Shown piece after piece: positions 32,264-51,619 of a DNA stretch of 64,000 bases (position 1 is its first letter; each line of letters opens with the position of its first letter). A program made the position numbers and the translations under genes. The DNA is from an uncultured Bacteroidota bacterium (lineage in GTDB: Bacteria; Bacteroidota; Bacteroidia; Bacteroidales; JAAUTT01), in the NCBI GenBank assembly GCA_963766305.1, contig CAVYAE010000066.1, positions 42,966-106,965 of the forward strand, read 5' to 3'. The notes under the pieces are model-generated. The model did not search any database. It saw nothing but the letters and a program-made list of their open reading frames with translations, and had not been told where the DNA came from.

Positions 32264-33904
32264 TCAGGCAGTTATTATTTGAGCGGCATCCTGAAGTCCA
32301 AGTTCTTTAATTGATATTTCACGCATTTCCCCCTTTCGTACCTTACCACTTATAGTCATCGGAAAATTATCAGTAAATTTCCAGTATTTTGGTATTTTGA
32401 ATGTGGCAATCTGCCCATGGCAGTACTCACGCAATTCTGTGGATGTAACATCAAAACCTGCCCTCAGCTGCACCCATGCCATAACTTCTTCACCGTATTT
32501 AACATCAGGTACTCCTATTACCTGAACATCAGATATAGCCTGATGTGTCATCAAAAATTCTTCAATTTCACGTGGAGCAATGTTTTCACCACCCCGAATA
32601 ATTATATCTTTAGCCCTTCCAACAATTTTAACATAGCCTTCCTCGTCCATTACAGCCAAATCCCCTGTATGCATCCACCGGTTAGCATCAATGGCATGCG
32701 CAGTCTCTTCAGGCATATCCCAATATCCAATCATAACTGAATAACCGCGTGTGCATATTTCTCCTCTTTCTCCACAAGGAACTATATATCCTGTCTCAGG
32801 ATCAATTATTTTTATTTCCAGATGTGGATGAACTTTCCCAACTGTTGAAACTCTTTTATCAATATTATCATCAGCAAAGCTTTGAGTTGAAACAGGTGAT
32901 GTTTCTGTCATCCCGTAACATACGGTTACTTCTCTGATATTCATTTTACTTATCACAAGTTTCATCGTTTCAACAGGGCATGGTGATCCAGCCATTATTC
33001 CTGTACGAAGTGATGAATAATTATATTTGTCGAATTCAGGATTTGCAAGCTCGGCAATGAACATTGTAGGTACCCCGTATAAAGCAGTACATTGCTCTGA
33101 TTCAACTGTTTTTAAAACAGCCTCAGGTTCAAAGAATTCACCTGGAATTACCATACATGCCCCATGGGTAATACATGCCATATTCCCCAAAACCATTCCA
33201 AAACAATGATAAAATGGCACCGGAATGCATACCCGGTCAAATTCACTGAAAAACATCCTTTCTCCAATAAAAAAGCCATTGTTAAGTATATTATGATGCG
33301 ATAAGGTAGCCCCTTTTGGATAACCGGTTGTACCTGAAGTATACTGAATATTTATAGGGTCATCAAATTGTAAATGCTTTTCACGTTCCTTAAGTTCATC
33401 TTCAGAAATTTTTGTGCCTGCCTGTATAAATTTTTCCCAATCTTTTTCAAGAATAATAGTTCTGTGAGGATATTCACATTCAGGCATAATGTGATTTAAA
33501 ATCTCTACATAATCAGTTTTTCGGAAATAATGGGAAGCAATCAAAAGATTAATCCTGCTTTGTTCAAGTGTATATTTTAAATCAGTGGATTTATAGGCAG
33601 GATTAATATTAACCATTATTGCACCTATGCGGGCAGTGGCAAATTGCACCAAAACCCATTCAAACCGGTTTGGGGACCATATCCCAACCCTGTCTCCTCT
33701 TTTTATTCCATAAGCCAGCAGGCCTTTGGCTACTTCTTCAATTTGTTTCCATAGTTCCTTATATGTTGCCCGGTAGCCTTGTGAAACCACGACAAGTCCT
33801 TCCCTGTGTCCATATTTTTCTACAATATTTCTTAAACATTCCCCGATAGTTTCTCCCTTTAAAGGAATTGAACTAATTCCATTAGAATATGAAAGTTTAC
33901 TCAT
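32264..33904 (-). CDS. AMP-binding acyl-CoA synthetase (YngI/ACSF2-like)
   Basis: [43 protein letters not shown]. Confidence 0.9.
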
Positions 33905-36788: not shown

Positions 36789-36847
36789 TTGGTAAAACTG
36801 CAATTTTTTTTTCAATTACATTTGTGTTTAATGAAAAAAGGAAAAAC

Positions 36848-38020
36848 ATGATATACAACTTTGATGAGATTGTAAGACGTGATGGCACTAATTCTCTTAA
36901 ATACGATGGCAGATCCGGGTATTTTGGGGTGAGTGATATTTTACCATTATGGGTTGCTGATATGGATTTCAAAACGCCTGATTTTGTAATGAAGGCCATT
37001 CGACAGCGAGCCGAACATGAAATATTGGGATATTCAATTAAATCAGAAGGTTTTGATAAATCAGTTATAAACTGGATGCAAAGAAGGTTTGAATGGACAG
37101 TTAAACCGGAATGGATTTCTTTCACCCCGGGTGTTGTAGCAGCAATTAATTTTGCCGTTCTTGGCTTTTCTGAACCAGGTGATAAAATAATAATACAACC
37201 ACCTGTATATTTCCCGTTTTTTACTGCAGTAAAGGATCATAACAGGCAATTGGTTGTTAATCAACTTAAAAATATAGATGGACATTATACTATGGATCTG
37301 GATCATCTCGAATCCATAATAGATGATAAAACCAAACTATTCATTTTATGTAATCCTCATAATCCGGTTGGGAGGGTTTGGAAAAGGAAAGAATTAGAAG
37401 ATCTTGGAAATATTTGTGTTAAACATAAATTAACTGTGTTTTCAGATGAAATTCATTCCGACATTATTTTGAATGGTCACGAACATATTCCCTTTGCTAA
37501 AGTTTCAAAGGAATTTGACAATATTACAGTTACAAGTATGGCTCCCAGTAAAACATTTAATATTGCAGGGTTATCCAGTTCAGTTGCAATAATTTCCAAT
37601 TATAATCTTAAGAAAAAATTTGAACATATCCCCAAAAGCCTGCACCTTACAGGTGGTAACATTTTTGGTAATGTTGCCCTGGAAGCCGCATATAGGGAAG
37701 GGGAGGAGTGGCTGCTGCAAATGCTGGCTTACCTTGACAAAAACTTCCGGTTTGTAAAATCATTTATAAATGAAAACATAAAGGAAATAAAAGTTATAGA
37801 TTTGGAAGGCACTTATTTAGTATGGCTGGATTGTACCTCAATTAAAGCCAGGGCAGGAAACCTGAATAAGTTTTTTGTGGAAAAAGCAAAAACAGGCTTA
37901 TCAGGGGGCAATGACTTTGGACCCGGCGGCGATGGTTTCATGCGGTTAAATATAGGATGTCCCTTGTCAGTTTTAAAAGAAGCTTTGCAAAGGATTAAGA
38001 ACGCTGTGGACAAATTGTAG
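36848..38020 (+). CDS. MalY/PatB-family PLP-dependent C-S lyase (cystathionine beta-lyase-like)
   Basis: LWVADMDF, LCNPHNPVGRVW, SDEIH, APSKTFNIAG; likely start MIYNF. Confidence 0.9.
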   Translation: MIYNFDEIVRRDGTNSLKYDGRSGYFGVSDILPLWVADMDFKTPDFVMKAIRQRAEHEILGYSIKSEGFDKSVINWMQRRFEWTVKPEWISFTPGVVAAINFAVLGFSEPGDKIIIQPPVYFPFFTAVKDHNRQLVVNQLKNIDGHYTMDLDHLESIIDDKTKLFILCNPHNPVGRVWKRKELEDLGNICVKHKLTVFSDEIHSDIILNGHEHIPFAKVSKEFDNITVTSMAPSKTFNIAGLSSSVAIISNYNLKKKFEHIPKSLHLTGGNIFGNVALEAAYREGEEWLLQMLAYLDKNFRFVKSFINENIKEIKVIDLEGTYLVWLDCTSIKARAGNLNKFFVEKAKTGLSGGNDFGPGGDGFMRLNIGCPLSVLKEALQRIKNAVDKL

Positions 38021-38677: not shown

Positions 38678-40327
38678 ATGAACATATTTAACATAAAAAT
38701 TTCTGCTAAAATTAGTTTGGGATTCGGGTTTATTACCCTTGCCCTGATAATAAATGCAGTTATAATTAGTAATGTGTTAGATAAAACAAGACTTATTAAT
38801 GATAAGATTAATAATGTTTATCAACCTTCCCGGATTTTACTGATTAAAATTGAGGATGAAATATTAAATTCAAAACTGCTGGTACAAAATTTTATTTTGT
38901 CCGAAAAAAAAATTGATAATACAGATTCGCAGGCAATTAATTATCTGCATACTACAACATTCCCGGGTTTAAAAAAGGATTTAACAGATATTGCAGAAGA
39001 CTGGGATCAGGTTAACAGGAAGGAACTGCATCAAATATTAAGTATTATAACTGATTCATTATTTAAATACCAAAATAAAGTAATTGATAATAAAATTGCC
39101 TATTCAAAAGAAGATGTTCAGTTCCAAAATGTTAATTTAACCGATTTAGCTTCTGATTACGGAAAAATAGGGCTGGTCACTGCTCAAATTAAAACATTGC
39201 TTGATCAATTGATTGATATTGAACATAAAAATGTTATTTCTTCAATATCCGGGATAGATAGTTATTTTATTCAGCTAAAGAAGAATATAATTTACACCTG
39301 CATTGCCTTGATTATTATTTCCCTGATTACAGCAAATATTACAATCAGAGGATTGGTTGTTCCTATCACTTATATTAAAAATATTCTGCTTTCAATGAGC
39401 AGGGGAGTTTTACCAAAGGACAAAATCAAGGAAGGCAGTGATGAGATAGGTGAAATGTCCAAGGCTTTGAACCAACTGGTGTACGGGTTAAAAAATTTAT
39501 CTTCTTTTGCCCTTGAAATAGGACGGGGAAATTACAACAGTAAGTTTAATCCTCTCAGTGAAGATGATGTAATTGGCAATTCGCTGTTGAGGATGCGTGA
39601 TGACCTTAAATCAGCCGCTATTGAAGAAGCTAAAAGGAAACTTGAAGATGAACACAGAAACTGGGCATCATCAGGTATTGCTAAATTCAGTGATATTTTG
39701 AGGAAGAACAATGATCAGCTGGATATTTTATCTTACAATATTATCAGTAATCTGGTTCAATACCTTGAAGCTAACCAGGGTGGTATATTTATTATAAATG
39801 ACAATGACATTGGTCATATATATATTGAAATGCTTGCCTGTTATGCCTATAACCACAAAAAATATTTGCAGAAAAACCTTGAAATGGGCGAAGGTTTGGT
39901 AGGAAGGTGTATCAAGGAGCGTGAAACTATATACCTGACTGATATTCCAAATGACTATATTAAAATTAAATCCGGATTGGGCAAAGCCAATCCCAAAAGT
40001 TTATTGCTGGTTCCTCTTGCAATGAATGAATATGTTTTTGGAGTTATAGAATTAGCTTCATTTTTGGAAATTCAGCCTTACCAGATTGAATTCGTTGAGA
40101 AAATTGCCGATAGTATTGCAAGCACCTTGTCTACAGTAAAAATAAATATTCAAACTACCAAACTTCTCGAACAATCACGTATTCAGGCTGAAGAACTTGC
40201 TTCCCAGGAAGAAGAAATGCGTCAGAATATGGAAGAACTCAGGGCCACCCAGGAACAATCGTCAAGAAAGGAAGAAGAGCTGAGGCATGCCCTGGAAGCA
40301 ATGCAAAAGCAAATTAATGAACAATAG
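38678..40327 (+). CDS. Membrane sensor: TM, periplasmic helical bundle, TM, HAMP, GAF, coiled coil; no output domain
   Basis: DEIGEMSKALN HAMP; GEGLVG...SLLLVPL...GVIELAS GAF; C-terminal EEEMRQNMEELRATQE coil. Confidence 0.8.
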   Translation: MNIFNIKISAKISLGFGFITLALIINAVIISNVLDKTRLINDKINNVYQPSRILLIKIEDEILNSKLLVQNFILSEKKIDNTDSQAINYLHTTTFPGLKKDLTDIAEDWDQVNRKELHQILSIITDSLFKYQNKVIDNKIAYSKEDVQFQNVNLTDLASDYGKIGLVTAQIKTLLDQLIDIEHKNVISSISGIDSYFIQLKKNIIYTCIALIIISLITANITIRGLVVPITYIKNILLSMSRGVLPKDKIKEGSDEIGEMSKALNQLVYGLKNLSSFALEIGRGNYNSKFNPLSEDDVIGNSLLRMRDDLKSAAIEEAKRKLEDEHRNWASSGIAKFSDILRKNNDQLDILSYNIISNLVQYLEANQGGIFIINDNDIGHIYIEMLACYAYNHKKYLQKNLEMGEGLVGRCIKERETIYLTDIPNDYIKIKSGLGKANPKSLLLVPLAMNEYVFGVIELASFLEIQPYQIEFVEKIADSIASTLSTVKINIQTTKLLEQSRIQAEELASQEEEMRQNMEELRATQEQSSRKEEELRHALEAMQKQINEQ

Positions 40328-40342
40328 TTGCAGCCAATCGGA

Positions 40343-41287
40343 TTATAGTTCCAGCCATATTATTTTATATCCGGTATTTTGAAAAAAATTGCCTGTATTA
40401 TATTTATCTTTTGTACATCCTAAAAAAAATCCTCCACCACCTGCCCCTGTGAGTTTCAGATAAAACAATCCGGAATTAAGGCCGGTTGTCCATAATTTAT
40501 TAATTTCTGAAGGGATCATTTTATGAAAAATTTTCAATTGATAGAGGGATAATTTTTCCCATAAATTAAAGAAAACTTCTTCATTAATCTTGTCATAATC
40601 AACCGGGCTGTTATTATTTACGATTTTATCAACCAGCGAGTCAACATAAGGTAAATACTCACTATCAAACAGGCTTTTATATTCAATACCCTTATAATCA
40701 TCAACAAATAATGTAACAAATGGCCTGCTGTTTCTTGAAATATTTGAATCTATTAAAAACCAATTTTTTGCAGGGATATTAACTTTATCTGCAACCTTTA
40801 CAGATTCATTATTTATAAGTAATACCTTATTGCAATAAATAGCTAAGGGATCGAGGCCTGAACTTTTGCCATGAAAATATGATTCCATTAAGGAAAAAAC
40901 AGATTTTAGATTAATTAATTCATTAGGTGTTGTTTCTTCATGGAATATTTGTTTTGAATACGATTTCAAAATAGCGGCACACACAGCACCGGAACTGCCT
41001 ATTCCATAGCCTGTTGGAATAGTTGACTTTAAAAAAAGCCCTTCATTAATATTTGCTTTTAATTTGGAAATGTCTATAACTTCATTAAAAAACTTGTTAC
41101 CTTCAAGGTAATGAGTAAATTCTTTTAATTCATTATTTGATTTAATTGCTTCATAAGTTGCTGAGGCAACATTAAAGAAATTTAATCGTGCGGAAAATAT
41201 TCTCAAAGGTATTATAAGGCCATTACCACCTTCCAGGATACTGTATTCCCCCAGTAAAAGCAACTTGGGATAAACTTCTTTAAACAT
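40343..41287 (-). CDS. GHMP kinase of the mevalonate pathway (mevalonate or phosphomevalonate kinase)
   Basis: KLLLLGEYS, IPTGYGIGSSGA, HGKSSGLDP, KLTGAGGGGF; overlaps the mvaD stop by 8 bp. Confidence 0.85.
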   Translation of the reverse strand: MFKEVYPKLLLLGEYSILEGGNGLIIPLRIFSARLNFFNVASATYEAIKSNNELKEFTHYLEGNKFFNEVIDISKLKANINEGLFLKSTIPTGYGIGSSGAVCAAILKSYSKQIFHEETTPNELINLKSVFSLMESYFHGKSSGLDPLAIYCNKVLLINNESVKVADKVNIPAKNWFLIDSNISRNSRPFVTLFVDDYKGIEYKSLFDSEYLPYVDSLVDKIVNNNSPVDYDKINEEVFFNLWEKLSLYQLKIFHKMIPSEINKLWTTGLNSGLFYLKLTGAGGGGFFLGCTKDKYNTGNFFQNTGYKIIWLEL

Positions 41288-42369
41288 TGTCTATTTGTTC
41301 AGGTCCATTACCAATATGATCATCTATATATTTTGAATCTTCACAGTAATATAATAATTCATTGCTTATAAATTCTGTAACCTTATTTTTAAATATCAAA
41401 GGATAAATTAAATGAATATTTGGACCTGCATCGATAGTAAAACAAACAGGTATATCTGTTGCACGTCTGAATTGCACTACCTTATTGATAATCTCCAGAC
41501 TCGCCGGTTTGAGTAAAATGTTACCGCCTGAAGATGAAAATAAAAGTCCATGTAAGCTAAGAGCTTCATTCTCAACAATACTTATAAACTTATCAATATC
41601 CCCGTTTTGTAAGGATTTCATCAATATTGAAAAATTGTGCCTGGCCTGTTCATATCTGCCAATAGCATATGGATGAGATTTCATTAGATTATGACCCTCC
41701 CTGCTTGATAACTTTTTTTTCCCTGATGAAACAATTAATATTGTGTCCTGTAAATTTTTAAAAACAGGATCTATTTGAAATGAAACAGGTTGTGCAAATA
41801 AATTTGAAAAACCTGGGTTACCCTCTGCTTCCCCCCAAACTACAAAACCACCATAAATGGACCTACACGCACTTCCTGAACCAAGCCGTGCCATATAGGA
41901 TGCATTTTGAAAAAAAATCATCGGATAAGTTAAGATGTCCTGTTAATTTTGATTTTATTGAACATAAACATAAAGCTAAAGCACCGAAAGCTGAAGCAGA
42001 AGAGGCAATTCCGGCAGAATGCGGGAAATTATTGCCTGAGTGAATATTAAGACTCATTTTTTGTAATTCAGGTATCCCGGTAAGCAATTTTTCAATATAT
42101 GATTTTACTCTTTTTTCAAAGCTACTTTCATTGGTGTCTGCTGATGTAAAAATAATCTTTGGGGCAGTTAAAGAATCAATATATTCATATTCAATGGATG
42201 TTTCAGTATAAGCATTGGATAAGGTGATACTTAATGACGGATTTGAAGGTAATTGGTTGTCATGTTTACCCCAGTACTTTACCAGGGCAATATTTGATGG
42301 ACATCTCCAGGCAATCTTACCTTTATTTTTTCCGGGAGAATATTTCATATCAGGTGAATCTGCAGACAT
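41280..42369 (-). pseudogene. mvaD: Diphosphomevalonate decarboxylase split by a +1 frameshift (real lesion or sequencing error)
   Basis: The N-terminal part has PSNIALVKYWGK and NNFPHSAGIASSAS. The C-terminal part has ARLGSGSACRS and FTIDAGPNIH. The frames switch at an A8 run (41910-41917; T8 on the coding strand). Confidence 0.88.
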
Positions 42370-42460
42370 TTATTTGTTATAGGGTTAATAGGTTTTAAAG
42401 GTTTTACAGGGTTTATATATTAATGTGTTTATTCGTTTATATGTTTATTTGTTTAAGTGT

Positions 42461-43402
42461 TTATTCGTTTAAAAGTATCATCTCCCTAAATGGGATTACT
42501 ACCGGGAAACCTTTAGATTTAAAGTAATTATCAACAAAAATCTTATCTAACGCAGTAACTGCCATTATAAAATCACCTCCCCAGGCACCAAGGGATTTTA
42601 TCGCGCCCGGGAAATCAGGGAATAAGGAATTTTGAACAGGGGTCATATTTACAACAGAACTTATTAGTTTTTCATGTTCTTTAATTAGAGGTATTATTTC
42701 TTCTATAGATTTAGCCTCTGTAAATTTACCGGTAAGCATTGATATTATCTCAATCTCAGCTGAGTATGAGTTATCTTGTTGACTTAAAAATTCTATGCCT
42801 GCTTTTGAATCCTGTTTTTTCTCAAGGTATATAAAGTACATTTTATTATGATATTCAGGATAATATGTAACATGTTTTATAAATGGTTCTTTATTATTTA
42901 AATTGTAAATTATAGGAGAAGAAGATAGAGCACAGGCTATATCAAATCCTGATCCATTGGTTATTTTATTATTTAAGAGGAAAGGATCTATGGCCGCCCA
43001 GGCAGCACAATTTGCAATTAAAGTGGAACTTGTACCGAGCCCCCAGTTTCTGTCAAAGTTTATATCAGTCTCAATTTCATATCCTGAATTTTGATTAATA
43101 AATCCAGGGTTCATCAGTTTAATTTCATTGAGTAACTTAAACAAACGTTCACCAATTACTTCATTTGAAGATTCTTCCAAAATTAATGTCTTACAGGACA
43201 GTACAGCTTTAAACCATTCTTTTCCATGTTCTTTGGCGGTCCATATTAATTTATTTTCATTTGAATATTCTCTGATATTCATTGATTGACCATATTTAAC
43301 AGGTATTGCCAATGCTTTTGCTCCCAATATAACAAGATATTCACCTGTCAATAGTAGTTTTCCATTCGAATAATATGACTTTGAGGAAACAATCACATTC
43401 AC
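42461..43402 (-). CDS. GYDIA-like GHMP kinase (Bacteroidota mevalonate-pathway kinase)
   Basis: GKLLLTGEY, WGLGTSST, GSGFDIACA, KSLGAWGGDF; directly downstream of HMG-CoA reductase. Confidence 0.85.
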   Translation of the reverse strand: MNVIVSSKSYYSNGKLLLTGEYLVILGAKALAIPVKYGQSMNIREYSNENKLIWTAKEHGKEWFKAVLSCKTLILEESSNEVIGERLFKLLNEIKLMNPGFINQNSGYEIETDINFDRNWGLGTSSTLIANCAAWAAIDPFLLNNKITNGSGFDIACALSSSPIIYNLNNKEPFIKHVTYYPEYHNKMYFIYLEKKQDSKAGIEFLSQQDNSYSAEIEIISMLTGKFTEAKSIEEIIPLIKEHEKLISSVVNMTPVQNSLFPDFPGAIKSLGAWGGDFIMAVTALDKIFVDNYFKSKGFPVVIPFREMILLNE

Positions 43403-43454
43403 AAAATGAGGTAAGGGTAATTAATTATGAAAATATAAGGTTTCATTATCACAG

Positions 43455-44744
43455 CTATCCTTTGGAACGTATCTTATTTAAAAATAAACTTACTTCATTG
43501 AAGGAAACGGTTTTGTCCTTGAACCATCTTACAATTTCTGTTTTTTCTATTTCAGAGGCATTTAGCTGTTGTAAAATATTTGAAAGGTGCATTCTCATAT
43601 GTCCTTTCTGAATACCATCTGTAATAAGAGCCTTTATGGCTGAGAAATGAGAAGCAAGTCCGGCAGATGCAATAATCATCATTAATTGCCTGGCAGAAGG
43701 GTTCCCGAGTATATCCAGTGAAACGGAAGCCAAAGGATGATGCGTTGTCACTCCTCCGACAGTACCCACAGTTAAAGGTAATTCTACAGTAAGGTTAAAA
43801 ATGCCGTCAGTTACAGACACTTCAGACAAAGATGTATATTTGCCCTCACTCGATGCATATGCATGAACATCAGCCTCAACTGCTCTGAAATCATTTCCTG
43901 TTGCCAACAGGACAGCATCGATACCATTCATAATACCTTTGTTATGTGTTACACATCTGTATATATCCGATTTGGCAACACTTACTGCTAATACAAATTT
44001 TTCAGCCAAACCCGGGATATTATTAAATACCGAAACCGGAGCTTCAACACTGCATTTTACCTTACACTCAGGCGAATAATTTGAAAGAATAGACATTAAG
44101 ATTTCACAGTTTGCCTGGTTATGTAAATTTCGGGAGCAATAATCCGTTAAAGTCACAGCTGTTTGTTCAAGTATGGTATTGATAAAATTAGCTCCCATGG
44201 AATCTATGGTATCAAAGACTATGCTAATCTGATAATAATCTCTTATCAGGCTTGTACAATCTTTTAAATGGATATCCAAAACACCGCCTCCACGTGATTC
44301 CATATTTGAATTTATAGATTTGATATTATTGTAAATAAATCGCTTAATTTCGCTCCAGTGGCCAAAAATTATTTCTTTGTGACCATTAAAGAAAAAATGA
44401 ACCTGTCCGGATTTTTTTGCAGAAATCACTTCTGCATGAAATCCCCCATTCTGAAACCAAAACTTCGCTGCTGCTGAAGCCGCAGCTACTACTGAACTTT
44501 CTTCGGTGACAAAAGGTATATGATAAATTTTATTATTCACCAGGAAATTGGGAGCAATACTGAATGGCAGATAATAATTAGATAAAGTGTTTTCACTAAA
44601 TTCATCAAAAAGTTGCTGATCAGACATATGCCAGAAAGACGCCAACAATTCAGATAGGTTTGTATACCCTGTACTTTTAGAAAGAGCTTCAATTTTTTGC
44701 TGCTTTGTCAATTTAGAAAACCCGTCTATAAAGTCATCTTCCAT
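43455..44744 (-). CDS. mvaA: HMG-CoA reductase, class II
   Basis: SEN, TEESSVVAA, DSMGAN, THNKGIMNG, GNDFRA, GIQKGHMRMH. Confidence 0.93.
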   Translation of the reverse strand: MEDDFIDGFSKLTKQQKIEALSKSTGYTNLSELLASFWHMSDQQLFDEFSENTLSNYYLPFSIAPNFLVNNKIYHIPFVTEESSVVAAASAAAKFWFQNGGFHAEVISAKKSGQVHFFFNGHKEIIFGHWSEIKRFIYNNIKSINSNMESRGGGVLDIHLKDCTSLIRDYYQISIVFDTIDSMGANFINTILEQTAVTLTDYCSRNLHNQANCEILMSILSNYSPECKVKCSVEAPVSVFNNIPGLAEKFVLAVSVAKSDIYRCVTHNKGIMNGIDAVLLATGNDFRAVEADVHAYASSEGKYTSLSEVSVTDGIFNLTVELPLTVGTVGGVTTHHPLASVSLDILGNPSARQLMMIIASAGLASHFSAIKALITDGIQKGHMRMHLSNILQQLNASEIEKTEIVRWFKDKTVSFNEVSLFLNKIRSKG

Positions 44745-44767
44745 AAATTTATTTAATTAACTTCTTA

Positions 44768-45763
44768 TTACCGGTCTTTAATATTTAAAAATGCATAAGC
44801 CATTTCTAAGCCTTTTAATTGTTGTGCAACAAAGGATTGTAGTTGAGAATAATCTTCCCTTGCATATTTAAGCATAGCAGATGCCTGACCATATACAGCC
44901 GGTATAACTGATTTTTTAATCAGATAGTAACCATCAATAAATGAGTTTATACCTCCACTAATTATTATTTGGTTACAAATGTTTTTGTTATTCAAGGCAA
45001 TATTATTAACTAATTCCAGCATTTCTACGGCATCCAATCCCACTCTGGTAAGTGGTTCAAAAATTTCATTTTTTTGACTGGCATCACGTAAAATTTCAAG
45101 CTTTGAAAAGTTGGTTCCTCCATAGGCAGCAAATTCAATAGCTGCCAGGGGTAATTCCAGTAAAGATCTCAGGCTGGAAGGTCCCATTCCTTGTCCTACT
45201 TCCTTAACAATCAGAGGCATATCTATTTTGTCCAGTAATTTTTTAATTGTGTCTATAGGCGGGAATTGAAGAATATCTCCCTCAGGCTGAAACCATTCCT
45301 GCATAGGATTGACGTGAATTATAAGTCCGTCCGCTCTTAAACGCTCCTGTAATTTAATTATTTTATCTGTGTGGCCTTCATAAACAAGTTGTTCTATCTG
45401 GCTTATGCCAAGGTTGGCAAATAAAGGTAATTCATTACCGATTATATCTCTTACATTAAAATCATCAAAATATTTATTTTCATCTAAAATAATTCTGCAT
45501 GATCCCAGACCCATCCCAAAACCAAATTCCCTGCAGGCCATTGCCAGATTTTTGTTAATGTTTCCTGCTTCCTGAGTTCCTCCGGTCATACTGGACACCC
45601 ACAGTGGTGCCCTGAAAGTTTTTCCAAGAAAGGTAAAAGAAGGTAAACCGTTTTTTGGATGAGCAGAAAGCAAAGGCTCATAATTGAACCTTATATCTAA
45701 ACCATTTTTGTTGGTTTGCGACTGCAGTGCAAGTTCAATATGATCCTTTTTTCTGTCCGGCAT
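44768..45763 (-). CDS. fni: Type 2 FMN-dependent isopentenyl-diphosphate isomerase
   Basis: RKKDHI, SSMTGG, GMGLGS, HVNPMQE, IVKEVGQG, GGTNF, SGG; likely start MPDRKK at 45763. Confidence 0.92.
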   Translation of the reverse strand: MPDRKKDHIELALQSQTNKNGLDIRFNYEPLLSAHPKNGLPSFTFLGKTFRAPLWVSSMTGGTQEAGNINKNLAMACREFGFGMGLGSCRIILDENKYFDDFNVRDIIGNELPLFANLGISQIEQLVYEGHTDKIIKLQERLRADGLIIHVNPMQEWFQPEGDILQFPPIDTIKKLLDKIDMPLIVKEVGQGMGPSSLRSLLELPLAAIEFAAYGGTNFSKLEILRDASQKNEIFEPLTRVGLDAVEMLELVNNIALNNKNICNQIIISGGINSFIDGYYLIKKSVIPAVYGQASAMLKYAREDYSQLQSFVAQQLKGLEMAYAFLNIKDR

Positions 45764-45828
45764 TGAATATTTTTTGTTTGTTGCTGGTTGCTGGTTGCAA
45801 ATATATATTTGCCATTGCAATATACCTG

Positions 45829-46974
45829 TCAGATTCCAAGATACTTTGCTATGACTACTTTAAGTATTTCAGAAGTACCTTCACCAATCTGCAGTAATCT
45901 TTGGTCACGGTAAAACCGTTCAATATCATATTCTCTCATTAAACCATATGCCCCATGAATTTGTAACGATTCGTCAGCTACTTCCTTTGCAATCTCCGAG
46001 CAATATAATTTTGCCATGGCAGCTTCTTTACCGAAAGCTTGCTTGGTATCCTTCAGCCAACAGGCTTTATAAAGTATATTTCTTGCCAGTTCTATTTTTG
46101 TAGCCATTTCTGATAATTTGAATCTGATAGCCTGAAATTTAGCTATAGGTTTTCCAAATTGTACTCTTTTACCTGAATAGTCTGCGGCCATTTCAAAAGC
46201 ACCCCGGGCTAAACCCAGGCCCATGGCGGCAATAGATAATCTTCCTGAATCAAGGGTCTCCAGCATTATTTCCGAGCCTTTACCCAAACCACCAAGCAAA
46301 TTATTCTTAGGTACAATTACATTATCGAAGTATAAACGTGCTGTATCTATGGCCCGCCACATCATTTTTCCATTGATCTTTTCAGCAGAATATCCTTTAG
46401 TGCCATTCTCCACGATAATAGTTGAGAGCTCTTTTTGGCCATTCTTAATACCAGTGATAACTTGTATGGTTACTCCGGCAGATATAGGTGTAGAGGCGTT
46501 AGAAATAAAAAGTTTTGATCCATTTATAATCCAGGAGTTTCCTTCAAGCACAGCAGTAGATTCTGTTCCTCTTGAATCGGATCCTGCATTTTTTTCAGTA
46601 AGCCCAAAGGCCCAAAGTGATTTTCCTGTGCACAGCCCTGGTAAATATTTCTGACGTTGCTGCTCAGTGCCGTAATTATAAATAGGACAAATTCCAAGAG
46701 AATTATGTGATGCTAAAACAGCTGCCTGTGAACTATCTACACGTGCGAGCTCTTCTACAGCAATTATTAATGACATGTAATCGCGACCCTGACCACCATA
46801 AATTTCAGGTATTGTGAGGCCAAATAATCCTAATTGTCCCATTCTGAGACTTAGTTCAGGAGAAAATTGCTCTTTTTCGTCTAATTCCCTGGCTAATGGC
46901 CGCACTTCTTTTTCTGCAAATTCCCTTACTTTTAACCTTAACGCCTCATGATCACCATTCAAATATATATCCAT
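45829..46974 (-). CDS. Acyl-CoA dehydrogenase, probably isovaleryl/branched-chain by context
   Basis: FGLTEKNAGSD, INGSKLFISNA, RVQFGKPI, QIHGAYG, QIGEGTSEI. Confidence 0.88.
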   Translation of the reverse strand: MDIYLNGDHEALRLKVREFAEKEVRPLARELDEKEQFSPELSLRMGQLGLFGLTIPEIYGGQGRDYMSLIIAVEELARVDSSQAAVLASHNSLGICPIYNYGTEQQRQKYLPGLCTGKSLWAFGLTEKNAGSDSRGTESTAVLEGNSWIINGSKLFISNASTPISAGVTIQVITGIKNGQKELSTIIVENGTKGYSAEKINGKMMWRAIDTARLYFDNVIVPKNNLLGGLGKGSEIMLETLDSGRLSIAAMGLGLARGAFEMAADYSGKRVQFGKPIAKFQAIRFKLSEMATKIELARNILYKACWLKDTKQAFGKEAAMAKLYCSEIAKEVADESLQIHGAYGLMREYDIERFYRDQRLLQIGEGTSEILKVVIAKYLGI

Positions 46975-47015
46975 TTCTATGTTGTTGGTATTTATAAATT
47001 ATAATTTAATAAATT

Positions 47016-49004
47016 TTATGACAATACTGCCAACACATCCTTACCGTTTACCAAATCACCATTTTTGACAAAAATTTCAGTAATCTCTCCATTTCGGGAC
47101 GCAATTATATGATTTTCCATTTTCATTGATTCAAGAACCATTAATATATCACCTTTGTTTACTTTTTCGTTTATTTTTATATTCATTTTTATAATCTTAC
47201 CATTTAATGGGGCCAACACCTTATTTTGTTGGTTAAATAAATTAAGTGTATTTTGAATTGAGCTATTGCTTCTGTAATTGTTTAAATATTTAAATGTAAA
47301 TGTAAAACCTGAAAGAGTCATATAATAATCTTCAGCTACTGATGAAACATAAATTAAATTTTTCTTCCCGTTATATACAAAATTAACTTTTGATACATCC
47401 TTTTTTCCGGTCACATAAAAGGGGCCACCGTCATTTATCCAAAAAACGAAATTATCGTCATCAGGTTTTTTAAATTCTACCTTGTAATTATCATTGAATA
47501 TTTCAAGTTCCGCAAGCATTATGTTTCTCCAATACCCAAGGCTTTGCCATACTGATTTATTGTAATTGTCAGTTGAATTGTTCTGAAAGGTATATATAAA
47601 AAATGCGGATATTATCAATTCTACAGATAAATTCCTGTATCTGTGCTGAAATGATGACAATATTATATTTTTTGAGTCATCACAAAAAGAAGTTGAATAA
47701 TTTTTATTGACAAATTCTTTATTGTTTAAAAGTTCTGAAAGGTATGAAATATTAGTTTCTATGCCATGAATAACATATTGTTGTAAAGATTTAACAAGTT
47801 TTATTCTCGATTTTTCCCTGTTATCCTCATTTACAATTACTTTTGCAATCATAGGGTCAAATTTTGAGGATATCAATGCCGGACCAGTTATGGCAGAATC
47901 AATTCTTATTGATTCATCTGCAGGTTCAAAATAGGTAACTACAGTACCCGCAGAAGGCATAAATTCATTTAAGGGGTTCTCGGCGTAAATCCTGGCTTCT
48001 AAAGCATATCCATGAATTGAAATATCTTCCTGCCTTATCTCAATTGGTAAACCCTGAGCTATTTGAATTTGTTCCTTAACTATATCAATTCCGGTTATTT
48101 GTTCAGTCACCCCGTGTTCAACCTGTATCCTTGTATTCATTTCAAGGAAATAGAAATTCATGTTCTCATCAAGTAAGAATTCTAATGTACCGGCGCTTAC
48201 ATAATTCATTTCCCGGGCTATTTTTAAAGAAGAGTTTACTATTCCATTACGTATTTCTTCTGTAAGGCCGTAAGCAGGGGCTTCTTCAATAATCTTCTGG
48301 TGCCTTCGCTGAATAGTACATTCCCTGTCAAACAGATGTATAAGGTTCCCATATTGGTCTCCAATAACCTGAACTTCTATATGACGTGATGATATTAAAT
48401 ATTCTTCAATGTAAACATTGGCATCTCCGAAATAAGCTAAAGCCTCACGACGGGCTGTTTCAACAGTGTTTTTAAGTTGTTTTGGGTCATAAACAATGTG
48501 CATTCCTTTGCCTCCTCCGCCGGAATCAGCTTTTACGATAACAGGAAATTTAAGTTTATGCGCTTGTAATAACAATTCTTCAGGGTTATTTCCTTTTACG
48601 GATTCCAAAAGTTTAATACCTAATGATTTTACAAATTCTCTGGCCACACTTTTTTGGCTCATTAATTTTATATTATCACTTGTTGGTCCTATAAACACCA
48701 GGTTTTTTCCTTCACATTCCCTAGCAAATTCGTAATTTTCTGATAAAAACCCATATCCCGGATGTATTGCCTCTATACCATTATTGATGGCAATATCTGT
48801 AATTTTTTTAATGTTAAGATAGGTATCTGTTATATCCCCGTCACCTAAACAGTATGCCTCATCAGCGTCGTTAACAAAATCTGAATTTATTTCTTCGTTT
48901 GTGTAAATAACAGCACAGGTATAATCCATGTTATGCGCTGTTTTAATAATTCTGCGTGCAATTTCTCCACGGTTTGCTACTAATATTTTATTAAAATTAA
49001 CCAT
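47016..49004 (-). CDS. Biotin carboxylase fused to BCCP (3-methylcrotonyl-CoA carboxylase alpha-like)
   Basis: ILVANRGEIA, HPGYGFLSEN, GGGGKGM, EMNTRIQVEH; C-terminal ESMKME biotinylation site. Confidence 0.9.
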   Translation of the reverse strand: MVNFNKILVANRGEIARRIIKTAHNMDYTCAVIYTNEEINSDFVNDADEAYCLGDGDITDTYLNIKKITDIAINNGIEAIHPGYGFLSENYEFARECEGKNLVFIGPTSDNIKLMSQKSVAREFVKSLGIKLLESVKGNNPEELLLQAHKLKFPVIVKADSGGGGKGMHIVYDPKQLKNTVETARREALAYFGDANVYIEEYLISSRHIEVQVIGDQYGNLIHLFDRECTIQRRHQKIIEEAPAYGLTEEIRNGIVNSSLKIAREMNYVSAGTLEFLLDENMNFYFLEMNTRIQVEHGVTEQITGIDIVKEQIQIAQGLPIEIRQEDISIHGYALEARIYAENPLNEFMPSAGTVVTYFEPADESIRIDSAITGPALISSKFDPMIAKVIVNEDNREKSRIKLVKSLQQYVIHGIETNISYLSELLNNKEFVNKNYSTSFCDDSKNIILSSFQHRYRNLSVELIISAFFIYTFQNNSTDNYNKSVWQSLGYWRNIMLAELEIFNDNYKVEFKKPDDDNFVFWINDGGPFYVTGKKDVSKVNFVYNGKKNLIYVSSVAEDYYMTLSGFTFTFKYLNNYRSNSSIQNTLNLFNQQNKVLAPLNGKIIKMNIKINEKVNKGDILMVLESMKMENHIIASRNGEITEIFVKNGDLVNGKDVLAVLS

Positions 49005-49059
49005 TTAATATATTCATAGTTATCAACTGAACAAGAGTATAGACAATTAGTTCATTCTA

Positions 49060-49842
49060 CTACCATACTGGTTTTCTTTTTTCAATAAATGCTTTCATAC
49101 CTTCCTGACCATCCTTTGAAATTCTTGCTTTTGATATTAAATCGGCCGATTCGCGCAAAAATTCATCTTCTGTATTAAACAAAGGGCTTTTATTTAAAAA
49201 TGCTTTGATACTCCTTAACGATAGGGGGCTGTTTTTAATCAATTTATGAATGAAGGAATCAATGAATTCTTCTGCCTGCACTTCATCTACAGCATAGTTA
49301 ACCAGTCCCCAGCGTTCCGCTTCAATACCACTGAATTGCTGGCCGGTGAGCATTAATTCTTTTGTTTTGCTTAACCCCATACGCCGGGCTATAAACATGG
49401 AAATCACTGCAGGTACCAGTCCTATGGTTACCTCAGAAAATCTAAAAACAGTATTACTTATACTTACAGCAATGTCGGCTGCAGCTGTTAACCCACATCC
49501 ACCCCCAATGACTGACCCGTGTACAAAAGAAATTACGGGTAAAGGAAAATGATAGAGGCATTGCAAACAATTTGCCATTAAAAGACTTTCCTTATAGTTT
49601 TTTTCAAAATCAAATTCCGCAACTTCCTTCATCCAGTTTATGTCTGCTCCTGAACAAAAAGACCTGCCATTGCCACGTAATAATAGTACACGCAAATCAG
49701 AATCATTTTCAAGGAATTTAAGCAAGGATGTTAATTCATTTACCATAAGAGGGTTGAAAGCATTATGGACTTCTGGCCTGTTTAAATAAATTGTTGCAAC
49801 CTGCCCTTTAATATCTACCTGAATAGTTTCGTAAGTGTTCAT
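49060..49842 (-). CDS. Crotonase-family hydratase, methylglutaconyl-CoA hydratase (LiuC)-like
   Basis: LNRPEVHNAF, FCSGADINWM, GGGCGL, FSEVTIGLVPAVIS; lies between the two carboxylase subunit genes. Confidence 0.85.
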   Translation of the reverse strand: MNTYETIQVDIKGQVATIYLNRPEVHNAFNPLMVNELTSLLKFLENDSDLRVLLLRGNGRSFCSGADINWMKEVAEFDFEKNYKESLLMANCLQCLYHFPLPVISFVHGSVIGGGCGLTAAADIAVSISNTVFRFSEVTIGLVPAVISMFIARRMGLSKTKELMLTGQQFSGIEAERWGLVNYAVDEVQAEEFIDSFIHKLIKNSPLSLRSIKAFLNKSPLFNTEDEFLRESADLISKARISKDGQEGMKAFIEKRKPVW

Positions 49843-49948
49843 CTTGTATGTAAATGATGGTTTATTTGTTTATTTGAAATTGGGTCAGTAGGATAGTAGG
49901 GTCTACATCGTTTATTTTCCTTGTTATTACCTTCATTTGTCATCCTTA

Positions 49949-49990
49949 ATTTGTCATTTGTCATTTGTCATTTGTCATTCGTCATTTGTC
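49949..49990 (+). repeat. Heptamer tandem repeat (ATTTGTC)x6
   Basis: atttgtc x4, attcgtc, atttgtc in the gap between the carboxyltransferase and hydratase genes. Confidence 0.9.
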
Positions 49991-50011
49991 TCGTCATCAG
50001 TAATATTTTTT

Positions 50012-51619
50012 TTACATTCTGTATACTCCTGTTTTAGGGGCTTCAAACTTATGATTTAAAGTCAATTCTATACATAATGCAAGTATTTTGCGGGTATCGG
50101 CCGGGTCTATGATTCCATCGTCCCAAATTCTTGAAGAACTGTAGTAAGAAGAACTTTCTTCATTGTATTTTAAAAGGATATTATTATGTAATTTTTGTAA
50201 TTCGTCATTATCAGGTATTTTACCTTCGGATTTTATCTGATCTTCTTTTACTGTAACTAAAACATTTGCAGCTTGTTCACCTCCCATTACCGATATTCTT
50301 GCATTCGGCCACATGAACAAAAATGATGGATCAAATGACCTTCCCGACATTGCATAATTGCCGGCCCCAAAAGATCCTCCGCAAATAATAGTTAATTTGG
50401 GGACTGTAGCTGTTGCAACCGCATGAACAAATTTGGCACCATCACGTGCGATACCATTTCTTTCGTATTGTTTACCTACAATAAATCCTGTTATATTTTG
50501 TAAAAAAACAATAGGTATTTTCCTGAAATTGCATAGCTCAACAAAATGAGTTCCTTTTAAAGAAGATTCTGAAAACAAAACGCCATTATTAGCTATTATC
50601 CCAACAGGATAACCTTTAATTTTTGCAAATCCTGTCACCAGCGTTGTTCCGTATAAACTTTTAAATTCCGAAAATCTGCTTCCATCTACAATTCTTGCTA
50701 TAATTTCATGCGGATCAACAGGTCTTCGAAGATCCAAACCAGCTATTCCGTATAATTCTTCAGAGGGATAAACGGGATTTTCATCTTCGGTCCTGCCTAT
50801 ATTAAATTTTTCTGTTCTGGGTAAGGTTTCAAATATATTCCTGCAAATTGCCAGGGCGTGCTGATCATTTTCAGCCATATGATCAGCAACGCCTGAATAA
50901 TAAGTATGTATTTCAGCTCCTCCCAGATCTTCTGCTGTAACAATTTCTCCGGTAGCAGCTTTAACAAGAGGAGGACCTCCTAAAAATATGGTCCCCTGAT
51001 TCCGGACTATAATTGTCTCATCGCTCATAGCAGGTATATATGCTCCTCCTGCAGTGCAGGAACCCATAACTATAGCAATTTGTGGTATTCCTGACGCTGA
51101 TAACTGTGCCTGGTTGTAGAAGATTCGTCCAAAATCAAATCTGTCCGGAAATACCTTTGCCTGCTCCGGAAGAAATATGCCACCCGAATCGACAAGATAA
51201 ACACAGGGTAATTTGTTTTCAAGTGCAATTTCCTGGGCACGTATATGTTTTCTTATTGTTTCTTTAATGTATGTCCCCCCCTTTACAGTAGAATCGTTTG
51301 CAACTATTACTGTTTCACGTCCGTGTATAATACCTATTCCGGTAATTATTCCAGCTGCCGGAAATTGTCCGCTATATTGTCCAAAGGCAGCAAAACTGGA
51401 AAGTTCAAGGAAGGGGGTATTATTATCCACCAATAAATTAATACGTTCCCGGGCCAAAAGTTTATTGCGCGATTTGTGTTTTTTGACAGCATGTATGCCT
51501 CCTGCAGAATGTATTTCATTCAAATGCTGATAATAAGTATTAAGAACTTTCTTATATTCAACAGCATTATTTATAAATTCCTTTGAATCAATATTTATGT
51601 TAGATTTAATAGTTTCCAT
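50012..51619 (-). CDS. 3-methylcrotonyl-CoA carboxylase beta subunit (carboxyltransferase, LiuB/MccB-like)
   Basis: [71 protein letters not shown]-terminal GVYRM. Confidence 0.9.

Follow-up and report, generated by a model that had tools for sequence, protein, structure and literature searches.

In a 64,000-nucleotide stretch of DNA from an uncultured member of the Bacteroidales (contig CAVYAE010000066.1, our C66; hereafter the window, from whose first letter all positions are counted), we found on the minus strand, at 40343–51619, an unbroken series of co-directional open reading frames (ORFs) that makes up nine genes and joins a liu-type module to a mevalonate module. In the direction of transcription the genes encode the beta subunit of a methylcrotonyl-CoA carboxylase (MCC), a crotonase-family enoyl-CoA hydratase, the alpha subunit of MCC, an acyl-CoA dehydrogenase (ACAD), a type 2 isopentenyl diphosphate isomerase (IDI-2), a class II HMG-CoA reductase (HMGR; HMG-CoA stands for 3-hydroxy-3-methylglutaryl-CoA), a GYDIA-family GHMP kinase, a diphosphomevalonate decarboxylase (mvaD) and a second, mevalonate-kinase-like GHMP kinase. 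This nine-gene cluster is real, conserved and widespread. We think it moderately probable, judging from gene content and genome comparisons, that the nine genes form a single operon for a mevalonate pathway that is fed by leucine or isovalerate, dispenses with HMG-CoA synthase, and serves as a second route to isopentenyl diphosphate (IPP) beside the methylerythritol phosphate (MEP) pathway.

A preliminary description of the window had reported nine co-directional genes in this order, separated by anything from an 8-bp overlap to a gap of about 170 bp, and the ORF listing, together with searches against Pfam and NCBIfam, bore this out: in the order of transcription the spacers measure 169, 55, 41, 8, 23, 52 and 91 bp and are followed by an 8-bp overlap. 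No terminator-like sites were found within the cluster spacers on the cluster strand. A scan for sigma-70 promoters was uninformative, yielding 54 sites compared with 60.9 expected, and the consensus employed does not extend to Bacteroidota promoters.

Conservation and linkage of the two modules

The presence of HMGR was compared with that of MCC beta in a first set of 41 genomes, comprising the window's own genome and 40 relatives. HMGR was found in 17 of these, namely the window's own genome, 10 of the 12 other members of its genus and 6 of the 28 genomes from other families of the order (a count from which one match at 25% identity, in G020, was dropped), and all 17 also contained an orthologue of MCC beta. 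Within the genus, the other members possessed either both modules (10/12) or neither (2/12). The reverse dependence failed, in that MCC beta occurred in 5 of the 24 genomes of this set that had no HMGR; where the MCC beta clusters of such HMGR-negative genomes were examined, they contained a lyase-like gene or a trio of genes that includes an HMG-CoA synthase (HMGS)-like gene instead. That the mevalonate module is never found without MCC beta, whereas MCC on its own, in the clusters examined, has another partner in HMG-CoA metabolism, is the pattern to be expected were the mevalonate genes dependent on the liu-type genes for HMG-CoA.

A second set was assembled by scanning 185,579 species genomes for IDI-2, which returned 451 related stretches; the best 80 of the 451, all of them from uncultured Bacteroidales or Bacteroidota metagenome-assembled genomes (MAGs), were considered further, and the 44 of these loci with long flanks were scored, the 36 short or duplicate loci being left out. 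HMGR was present in 41 of the 44 genomes, and MCC beta was present in the same 41. The three loci that make up the remainder (L024, L030 and L064) each contain an orphan IDI-2 gene with no HMGR-sized neighbor, in a genome with neither HMGR nor MCC beta. In 38 of the 41 carriers a single contig bears the genes for both MCC beta and HMGR on the same strand, at a distance of 4.9–5.4 kb, compared with 5.3 kb in the window; one of these 38 MCC beta copies contains three stop codons. This distance is 8.0 kb in G073; in G049 a contig break falls between the two genes and IDI-2 is preceded by ORFs that, by their sizes, would be hydratase, MCC alpha and ACAD genes; and in G076 the two modules are on different contigs.

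Gene order was compared by tblastn of the window's proteins against 16 loci of relatives. The full nine-gene order was recovered in seven of these (L006, L007, L010, L014, L015, L016 and L021), and eight of the nine genes were found in L011 before the contig ended. Two further loci retained the order but lacked MCC alpha (L008, and L018, in which IDI-2 is missing too), three carried the mevalonate module with no liu-type genes within 8–9 kb upstream (L012, L013 and L017), and three were on contigs too short to judge. Among the 13 loci with at least 5 kb of sequence upstream of HMGR, the liu-type genes lay directly upstream in 10.

The cluster is also present in G301, a closed genome (one contig, 100% complete) that belongs to this order, in which the nine genes lie on one strand with ends that overlap or abut; no HMG-CoA synthase was found in G301 with two models, and no HMG-CoA lyase. 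Where the two modules meet, ACAD and IDI-2 are separated by 8 bp in the window and by 14–15 bp in L037 and L086, and in G301 they overlap by 4 bp.

Taken over both sets and G301, MCC beta accompanies HMGR in 59 of 59 HMGR-bearing Bacteroidales genomes (17 + 41 + G301), one of the copies being degraded. A synthase-like gene (at least 100 bits) was detected in two of these 59 carriers (G001 and G073), and a lyase-like gene in two others (G015 and G076), in both of which the modules are unlinked; where the modules are fused, no lyase is encoded and, with one exception, no synthase. The linkage to which the preliminary description had drawn attention is conserved in relatives, and 57 of the 59 carriers are without a synthase-like gene. 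The adjacency is no product of chance, since it is seen again in dozens of species whose proteins are 45–85% identical.

Decayed copies of single genes were seen in two relatives. The MCC beta gene of G051 (C24:105614–106717) contains two TGA codons and one TAG codon and covers residues 169–535 only, and the HMGR gene of G061 (C12:59092–60165) matches from residue 74 onward only, in a frame of 367 amino acids.

HMG-CoA synthase, HMG-CoA lyase and MEP genes

The preliminary description had stated that genes for HMG-CoA synthase, HMG-CoA lyase and thiolase were missing from the window. For the synthase and the lyase this was confirmed, and profile searches extended it to the rest of the assembly, which comprises 4.55 Mb in 100 contigs and is rated 93.4% complete. 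Across the whole assembly the best match to the synthase model TIGR01835 scored 32 bits and fell on a FabH-sized ORF of 333 amino acids, and neither of the synthase families PF08540 and PF01154 had a match. The best match to the lyase model NF004283 reached 49.7 bits (cut-off 246) on an ORF of 510 amino acids; matches of about 50 bits to this model in the assembly sit on ORFs of about 500 amino acids. No thiolase was found among the 30 window ORFs that were scanned with Pfam; no genome-wide thiolase search was made. As the genome has neither synthase nor lyase, a single encoded producer and a single encoded consumer of HMG-CoA are left, both of them in the predicted operon, and the only closed pathway runs from isovaleryl-CoA to IPP.

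Among relatives, the mvaS cut-off was reached in none of the 41 genomes of the first set, where the only substantial match was that of G001 (242 bits), and in none of the 44 of the second set, where only G073 gave a match (113 bits). Lyase-like genes (170–193 bits) were present in five genomes of the first set and in none of the 12 other members of the window's genus that were searched; on the contig that carries MCC beta, such a gene adjoins it in G036 and lies 4–11 kb away in G015. In the second set lyase-like genes were found only in G076, on the contig of its separate MCC beta.

The MEP enzymes Dxr, IspG and IspH are all encoded in the window's genome, each scoring over its cut-off. Of the 41 first-set genomes, 38 had a Dxr that scored over the cut-off, and the three in which it was missed are 77–85% complete; among carriers of the cluster, it was found in 15 of the 17 of the first set and in all five of a separate test that included G301. 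The earlier proposal that the cluster bypasses HMG-CoA synthase is supported, in that mvaS and the lyase gene are missing and the linkage is conserved. The presence of Dxr, IspG and IspH would make the operon's route a second one to IPP and not the only one. With an intact MEP pathway, this route would be auxiliary.

The liu-type half

The first gene (50012–51619) encodes an MCC beta protein, or carboxyltransferase, of 535 amino acids (Pfam Carboxyl_trans, 494.8 bits). Compared with chains in the PDB, it scored 683.8 bits against human MCCB (8j4z_J) and 675.6 bits against MCC beta of Pseudomonas aeruginosa (3u9r_B), 447.8 bits against the beta subunit of geranyl-CoA carboxylase (5ikl_B), and no more than 284 bits against propionyl-/methylmalonyl-CoA carboxyltransferase-group chains; its best match, at 685.3 bits, was 9tps_A, a chain deposited as propionyl-CoA carboxylase (PCC) beta. 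Orthologues that are 61–85% identical occupy the same position in the cluster of relatives. MCC alpha (47016–49004; 662 amino acids), which contains the Pfam domains Biotin_carb_N, CPSase_L_D2, Biotin_carb_C and Biotin_lipoyl, aligned over its full length with human MCCA (8j4z_E, 437.4 bits), as against 403 bits for PCC alpha, and human MCCA was the closest among the chains deposited under the name of a substrate. We considered, and on the PDB scores of MCC beta rejected, a geranyl-CoA or propionyl-CoA carboxylase. A carboxylase specific for another substrate was thus not found at this locus: by its PDB scores the enzyme is of the MCC type.

Between the two MCC genes lies that of the hydratase (49060–49842; 260 amino acids; Pfam ECH_1, 182.3 bits). 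Its best NCBIfam match was to PRK05674, gamma-carboxygeranoyl-CoA hydratase, at 210 bits, under the cut-off of 426, and its best PDB matches were 4kpk and 3i47 at about 173 bits, with 130 bits for the AtuE-like chain 4zu2. Its position between the genes for the two MCC subunits suggests that it is a 3-methylglutaconyl-CoA hydratase.

The ACAD (45829–46974; 381 amino acids) has four ACAD Pfam domains and is of the butyryl-CoA dehydrogenase (Bcd) or short-chain acyl-CoA dehydrogenase (SCAD) type. It scored 345 bits against 5ol2_C, from a Bcd-Etf complex, 312 bits against 4l1f, and 283–350 bits against Bcd and SCAD chains overall; against isovaleryl-CoA dehydrogenase (IVD) chains it scored 227 bits (4o5m) and 199 bits (1ivh). 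Its C-terminal region contains the sequence QIGEGTSE. Orthologues in relatives are 64–85% identical, placing the ACAD among the best-conserved genes of the cluster. The preliminary description had assigned to this gene the oxidation of isovaleryl-CoA; a dehydrogenase that could serve such a step is present, by its PDB scores Bcd/SCAD-like and not IVD-like, and we treat it as a putative isovaleryl-CoA dehydrogenase.

A polyketide-type HMGS cassette was rejected, since searches of the cluster with Pfam and NCBIfam revealed no acyl carrier protein, no ketosynthase and no second enoyl-CoA hydratase, and neither an HMG-CoA synthase domain nor a CoA-transferase-like decarboxylase domain, as in the aib system, was found in the 10 ORFs of the cluster.

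The mevalonate half

The IDI-2 gene (44768–45820; 350 amino acids) starts 8 bp past the stop codon of the ACAD gene and encodes a divergent protein that matches TIGR02151 at 200.8 bits (E 2.8e-59), under the cut-off of 281.3, and has no Pfam match; all five of its PDB matches are type 2 isomerases, the best being 1vcf (E 4.9e-33). HMGR (43455–44744; 429 amino acids; Pfam HMG-CoA_red, 275.5 bits) scores 266.6 bits with TIGR00532, over the cut-off of 259.95. The GYDIA-family kinase (42461–43402; 313 amino acids) scores 359 bits with NF040656, over the cut-off of 225, and at E 0.01 the PDB offered no relative. The gene at the cluster's end (40343–41287; 314 amino acids; Pfam GHMP_kinases_N) matches the mevalonate kinase model TIGR00549 at 75.5 bits, under the cut-off of 163, and a mevalonate-kinase-like GHMP kinase gene comes last in the cluster of relatives too. 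By sequence family, the GYDIA protein is a candidate for one of the two Bacteroidota-type mevalonate and phosphomevalonate kinases, and either of the cluster's two kinases may perform either step. Mevalonate kinase and phosphomevalonate kinase of Bacteroidetes were, according to one account (PMC6107057), identified only in 2017.

The mvaD gene (41280–42369) is split in the assembly. Its MVD-like_N and MDD_C domains are divided over two ORFs in different frames (41863–42369 and 41280–41921), which meet at a run of eight T residues at 41910–41917 and are set apart by one base; together they tile the intact decarboxylases of 362–363 amino acids from L086 and L105. The other eight genes of the cluster are intact. 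Contigs of four public runs were compared with the cluster; the runs with near-identical sequence are, by their labels, bog and soil metagenomes. One contig of run X4, of depth 4.6, is a letter shorter at 41910, and this brings both parts of mvaD into a single frame; 28 of the 29 X4 pieces that match the cluster do so at 99% identity or more. Run X1 gave no cover at this site and the contigs of X3 end on either side of it, and nothing was concluded from either. The break in mvaD is probably a homopolymer slip, either of the assembly or at the level of the strain.

Relatives with a thiolase/HMGS/DUF35 trio

In G073, the MAG Bacteroidales bin64 (CP070687.1), the cluster is present in a twelve-gene version (L086, 1416–16499). 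Between MCC alpha and the ACAD it contains genes for an HMGS-like protein of 348 amino acids, a thiolase of 385 amino acids and a DUF35-type protein of 132 amino acids, and the last kinase gene is followed by that of a UbiA prenyltransferase of 311 amino acids. A second genome, G033 (L106, 4026–15170), lacks the mevalonate genes and has those for MCC beta, hydratase, MCC alpha, the HMGS-like protein, thiolase, DUF35 and ACAD; in this locus a DDE transposase gene (an insertion sequence element) separates the hydratase gene from that of MCC alpha, and the ACAD gene is followed by ffh. The 132-amino-acid protein of the trio has OB_ChsH2_C and zf-ChsH2 domains (L086 and L106).

The combination in G033 of liu-type genes and a synthase with neither reductase nor lyase is best understood as a route that leads from acetyl-CoA to isovaleryl-CoA, and it presupposes a module able to work from HMG-CoA toward isovaleryl-CoA. 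These variants lessen confidence in a purely one-way picture, and they fit the Bcd-like character of the ACAD; the liu-type module may run in both directions, and the version with twelve genes may be the ancestral one. They do not, however, rescue a backward reading of the window itself, which has no synthase.

Proposed route

All of the enzymes needed from isovaleryl-CoA to mevalonate are encoded in the cluster, the hydratase and the ACAD being putative as to substrate. The isovaleryl-CoA would come from leucine by way of 2-ketoisocaproate or from environmental isovalerate after activation. The Bcd-like ACAD would oxidize it to 3-methylcrotonyl-CoA, passing electrons to the single EtfAB pair of the genome; MCC alpha and beta would, with bicarbonate and ATP, carboxylate 3-methylcrotonyl-CoA to 3-methylglutaconyl-CoA; and the crotonase would hydrate this to HMG-CoA. 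Class II HMGR would then reduce HMG-CoA to mevalonate, from which the two GHMP kinases and the decarboxylase would yield IPP, with IDI-2 equilibrating IPP and dimethylallyl diphosphate. While homology establishes the identities of the genes, and the genome comparisons their linkage, their co-occurrence and the absence of synthase and lyase, we infer what the hydratase and the ACAD act on, the direction of flux, the co-transcription of the genes and their physiological role. By our estimate the leucine route would cost about 4 ATP, be redox-neutral and keep the branched C5 skeleton, the added bicarbonate being lost again as CO2, and it would suit an anoxic habitat rich in peptides or isovalerate.

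Candidate partners for the early steps are encoded in the same genome, which contains a single etfB-etfA pair, adjoining the gene for a long ACAD, and four loci whose fused E1_dh proteins may be branched-chain 2-oxoacid dehydrogenases. These make an electron acceptor and a route from 2-ketoisocaproate to isovaleryl-CoA plausible. This etfB-etfA pair (L104, 1717–9211; G000, C16) is followed by the gene for the long ACAD, of 569 amino acids and with an AcylCoA_dehyd_C domain, and is preceded, on the opposite strand, by that of a 1039-amino-acid fusion of a NuoF-like protein with a pyridine-nucleotide-disulphide oxidoreductase. Closer to the cluster, genes for an AMP-binding acyl-CoA synthetase of 546 amino acids (32264–33904, minus strand) and a class I/II aminotransferase of 398 amino acids (36824–38020, plus strand) lie 6.4 kb and 2.3 kb, respectively, past the cluster's end, and it is possible that they are the enzymes that activate isovalerate and transaminate leucine.

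Alternative explanations

Several observations weigh against a leucine-fed mevalonate operon. The ACAD resembles IVD less than it does the butyryl-CoA dehydrogenases that anaerobes use as reductases, and its GEGT motif occupies what we take to be the position of the catalytic glutamate of medium-chain acyl-CoA dehydrogenase and Bcd, not that of IVD. The hydratase falls under every curated NCBIfam cut-off, and no AUH or LiuC chain was among its 11 PDB matches at E 1e-30. The two modules lie apart in three carriers (G023, G034 and G076) as well as in G015, and two relatives (G073 and G033) carry an archaeal-type trio inside the liu part. The mvaD gene is frameshifted in the assembly, and its in-frame form comes from one contig of depth 4.6 that is possibly itself erroneous. 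Finally, the MEP pathway is complete as far as tested, so that the operon's route is dispensable in principle, and the window's genome is 93.4% complete, so that absence there is no proof and it is the closed genome G301 that carries the argument.

One alternative is that the liu-type module is a reversible valve between HMG-CoA and isovaleryl-CoA that stands beside the mevalonate genes by ancestry and runs mainly toward isovaleryl-CoA, a primer for iso-fatty acids, the HMG-CoA of the window's organism being supplied by an unrecognised synthase. The trio of G033, accompanied by liu-type genes without mevalonate genes, and that of G073, inside a full cluster, favor such a valve, as do the resemblance of the ACAD to Bcd enzymes, whose role in anaerobes is to reduce enoyl-CoA, and the myxobacterial precedent presented in part of PMC7321100. 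It is, however, rather unlikely, given that 57 of the 59 carriers, the closed G301 included, have no synthase-like gene and so no encoded source of HMG-CoA for the backward direction, that a full ATP-grasp biotin carboxylase subunit has been kept, unlike in the known decarboxylating systems, and that the mevalonate module never occurs without MCC beta (59/59). It is also conceivable, though we hold it to be very unlikely, that in this genome the cluster is in decay or silent, with the MEP pathway making all of the IPP and the mvaD frameshift marking a loss of function. The division of mvaD over two frames and the MEP genes are what such decay would leave, and G051 and G061, with their interrupted MCC beta and shortened HMGR (three stops, and the first 73 residues missing, respectively), show it in relatives; yet a single base in an 8-base homopolymer is a typical site of assembly error, the X4 contig has the in-frame length, and the eight other genes are intact.

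The remaining possibilities concern other substrates. Exogenous mevalonate might be converted to IPP by the kinases and the decarboxylase, with an oxidative HMGR feeding the rest by way of HMG-CoA to isovaleryl-CoA. HMGR does pass TIGR00532, which is named for the degradative NAD-dependent enzyme, and a last step that is reductive would suit a Bcd-like ACAD; but the TIGR00532 family also includes biosynthetic class II enzymes, the cluster has no transporter gene (Pfam, NCBIfam), an ATP-dependent carboxylase run as a decarboxylase has no precedent as a physiological route, and free mevalonate is no known abundant substrate, all of which makes this use highly improbable. Most improbable of all is the mevalonate-shunt or prenyl-recycling loop that the preliminary description had offered as an alternative, in which prenyl units from isoprenoid turnover would pass through 3-methylcrotonyl-CoA to IPP: the order from MCC through the hydratase to HMGR would serve it, but the cluster contains neither a prenol or prenal dehydrogenase nor a 3-methylcrotonate-CoA ligase, and it would have no need of the ACAD, which is nonetheless among the best-conserved genes and abuts IDI-2. 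We therefore retain the operon for a synthase-free, leucine- or isovalerate-fed mevalonate pathway as the favored reading.

Relation to known systems

The proposed reactions are those of the "leucine shunt", in which leucine passes through isovaleryl-CoA, 3-methylcrotonyl-CoA, 3-methylglutaconyl-CoA and HMG-CoA to mevalonate. A passage of one review places this shunt in Halobacterium salinarum and Leishmania (PMC8791446), and other accounts, as far as their relevant passages go, show it in Trypanosoma brucei (PMC5993337), invoke it for labelling in myxobacteria (PMC7321100) and propose it from omics data for the archaeon Calditenuis (PMC12979851). The preliminary description was thus right that leucine carbon enters isoprenoids in trypanosomatids, but by these passages it does so not only there, Halobacterium and myxobacteria being further cases (PMC8791446, PMC7321100). 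The known shunts supplement a pathway fed by acetyl-CoA, and their genes are not described as forming one operon with mevalonate genes; in the window, by contrast, both halves would belong to one operon, the shunt would, with no synthase or lyase, be the sole encoded entry, and the host is an anaerobe-type member of the Bacteroidales with the MEP pathway. A literature search that excluded subscription journals and supplements revealed no description of an operon joining both halves, of a synthase-less pathway fed in this manner, or of its presence in MEP-bearing Bacteroidales, and the word "leucine" does not occur in the broad survey of mevalonate pathway genes by Hoshino & Gaucher (2018). The chemistry is already known; what is new is the operon form without a synthase.

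Each half of the cluster also resembles a known system. With Pseudomonas liuABCDE and the Bacillus yng genes it shares both MCC subunits, a crotonase between them, an ACAD and a common direction of transcription; it differs in that the genome has no HMG-CoA lyase, the ACAD is Bcd/SCAD-like, and the cluster runs on into mevalonate genes. With the pathway of the Flavobacterium johnsoniae type it shares a class II HMGR, the GYDIA kinase and a second divergent GHMP kinase, the decarboxylase and IDI-2, and the window's HMGR is 46–54% identical to HMGRs from other orders of the class; F. johnsoniae has HMGS. Lineages of that type rely on the mevalonate pathway, whereas here the MEP pathway is kept and liu-type genes are fused upstream. 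The aib operon of Myxococcus xanthus likewise unites HMG-CoA and isovaleryl-CoA metabolism in one cluster, and G033 and G073 are alike to it in logic. The aib route employs the CoA-transferase-like decarboxylase AibA/B and the reductase AibC; the cluster described here has instead an ATP-dependent MCC and an ACAD, and its version in the window has no synthase. The archaeal thiolase/HMGS/DUF35 complex is the system with which the trio of L086 and L106 is to be compared; the window's genome has no such trio, and in those two loci it is flanked on one side by MCC alpha and on the other by the ACAD.

Wider distribution and implications

We also surveyed the class with an even sample of 300 genomes, 46 of which, besides the window's own genome, contained HMGR. 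An HMGS match at E 1e-15 was found in 12 of these 46, which belong to other orders, and none in the remaining 34; four complete HMGS-negative genomes from other orders were negative with PF01154 as well and had a lyase-like gene. A search of the sample for MCC beta at E 1e-120 was rejected as too lax, in that 262 of 301 genomes matched, mostly at 44–49% identity; a carboxyltransferase at that identity is a different or distant enzyme, and no argument from co-occurrence is drawn. The tally of 262 includes two unpublished genomes (G263 and G178), and no claim depends on either.

In agreement with these HMGS-negative genomes, a 2025 study independently states, in the part that bears on this question, that HMGCS is missing, without explanation, from some Flavobacterium that use the mevalonate pathway, and urges a search for a non-homologous enzyme (PMC12016392). 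By analogy, the Bacteroidales operon suggests where the missing HMGCS function might be sought, and it offers a testable answer to this published gap. A bolder extension, which we put forward tentatively and regard as doubtful, holds that MCC, hydratase and ACAD are the sole source of HMG-CoA in a large Bacteroidales clade, that the same logic explains synthase-less pathways across the Bacteroidia, that a sizeable part of the phylum builds isoprenoids from the skeleton of leucine or from 2-ketoisocaproate made de novo and not from three acetyl-CoA, and that the module may in addition be a reversible valve between isoprenoids and iso-fatty acids.

If the favored reading is correct, the cluster would give the leucine shunt its first dedicated operon in bacteria, and it would be nature's own design for a mevalonate pathway without thiolase and HMG-CoA synthase. 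The carbon-isotope signatures of menaquinones and polyprenols in peat, soil and sediment could then reflect amino acids and fixed bicarbonate and not sugars. For metabolic engineers the cluster represents a compact nine-gene template for a shunt that, according to the passage on it in the review cited above, had not yet been built in Escherichia coli (PMC8791446). The MEP and mevalonate routes coexist stably in many free-living Bacteroidales.

Genomic setting and minor observations

The cluster lies among ordinary chromosomal genes. It is flanked on its 5' side by a CCA-adding/poly(A) polymerase-like gene on the same strand and on its 3' side by a convergent gene for a HAMP-GAF protein of 549 amino acids (38678–40327, plus strand), and the farther flanks contain gyrB, recJ and a gene for an HtrA-like protease, among others; the G+C content is even across the region. 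A HAMP-GAF protein, at 54–75% identity, also neighbors the cluster in four relatives of the same genus (L006–L009).

Within the 169-bp spacer between the MCC beta and hydratase genes, at 49949–49990, lies a tandem repeat of the heptamer ATGACAA (as read on the minus strand). Contigs of the public runs pile up at this repeat, to a depth of 89 in X1 and with many loose ends, and it is probably a simple repeat common to many organisms. One X4 contig is five letters shorter here, at 49988.

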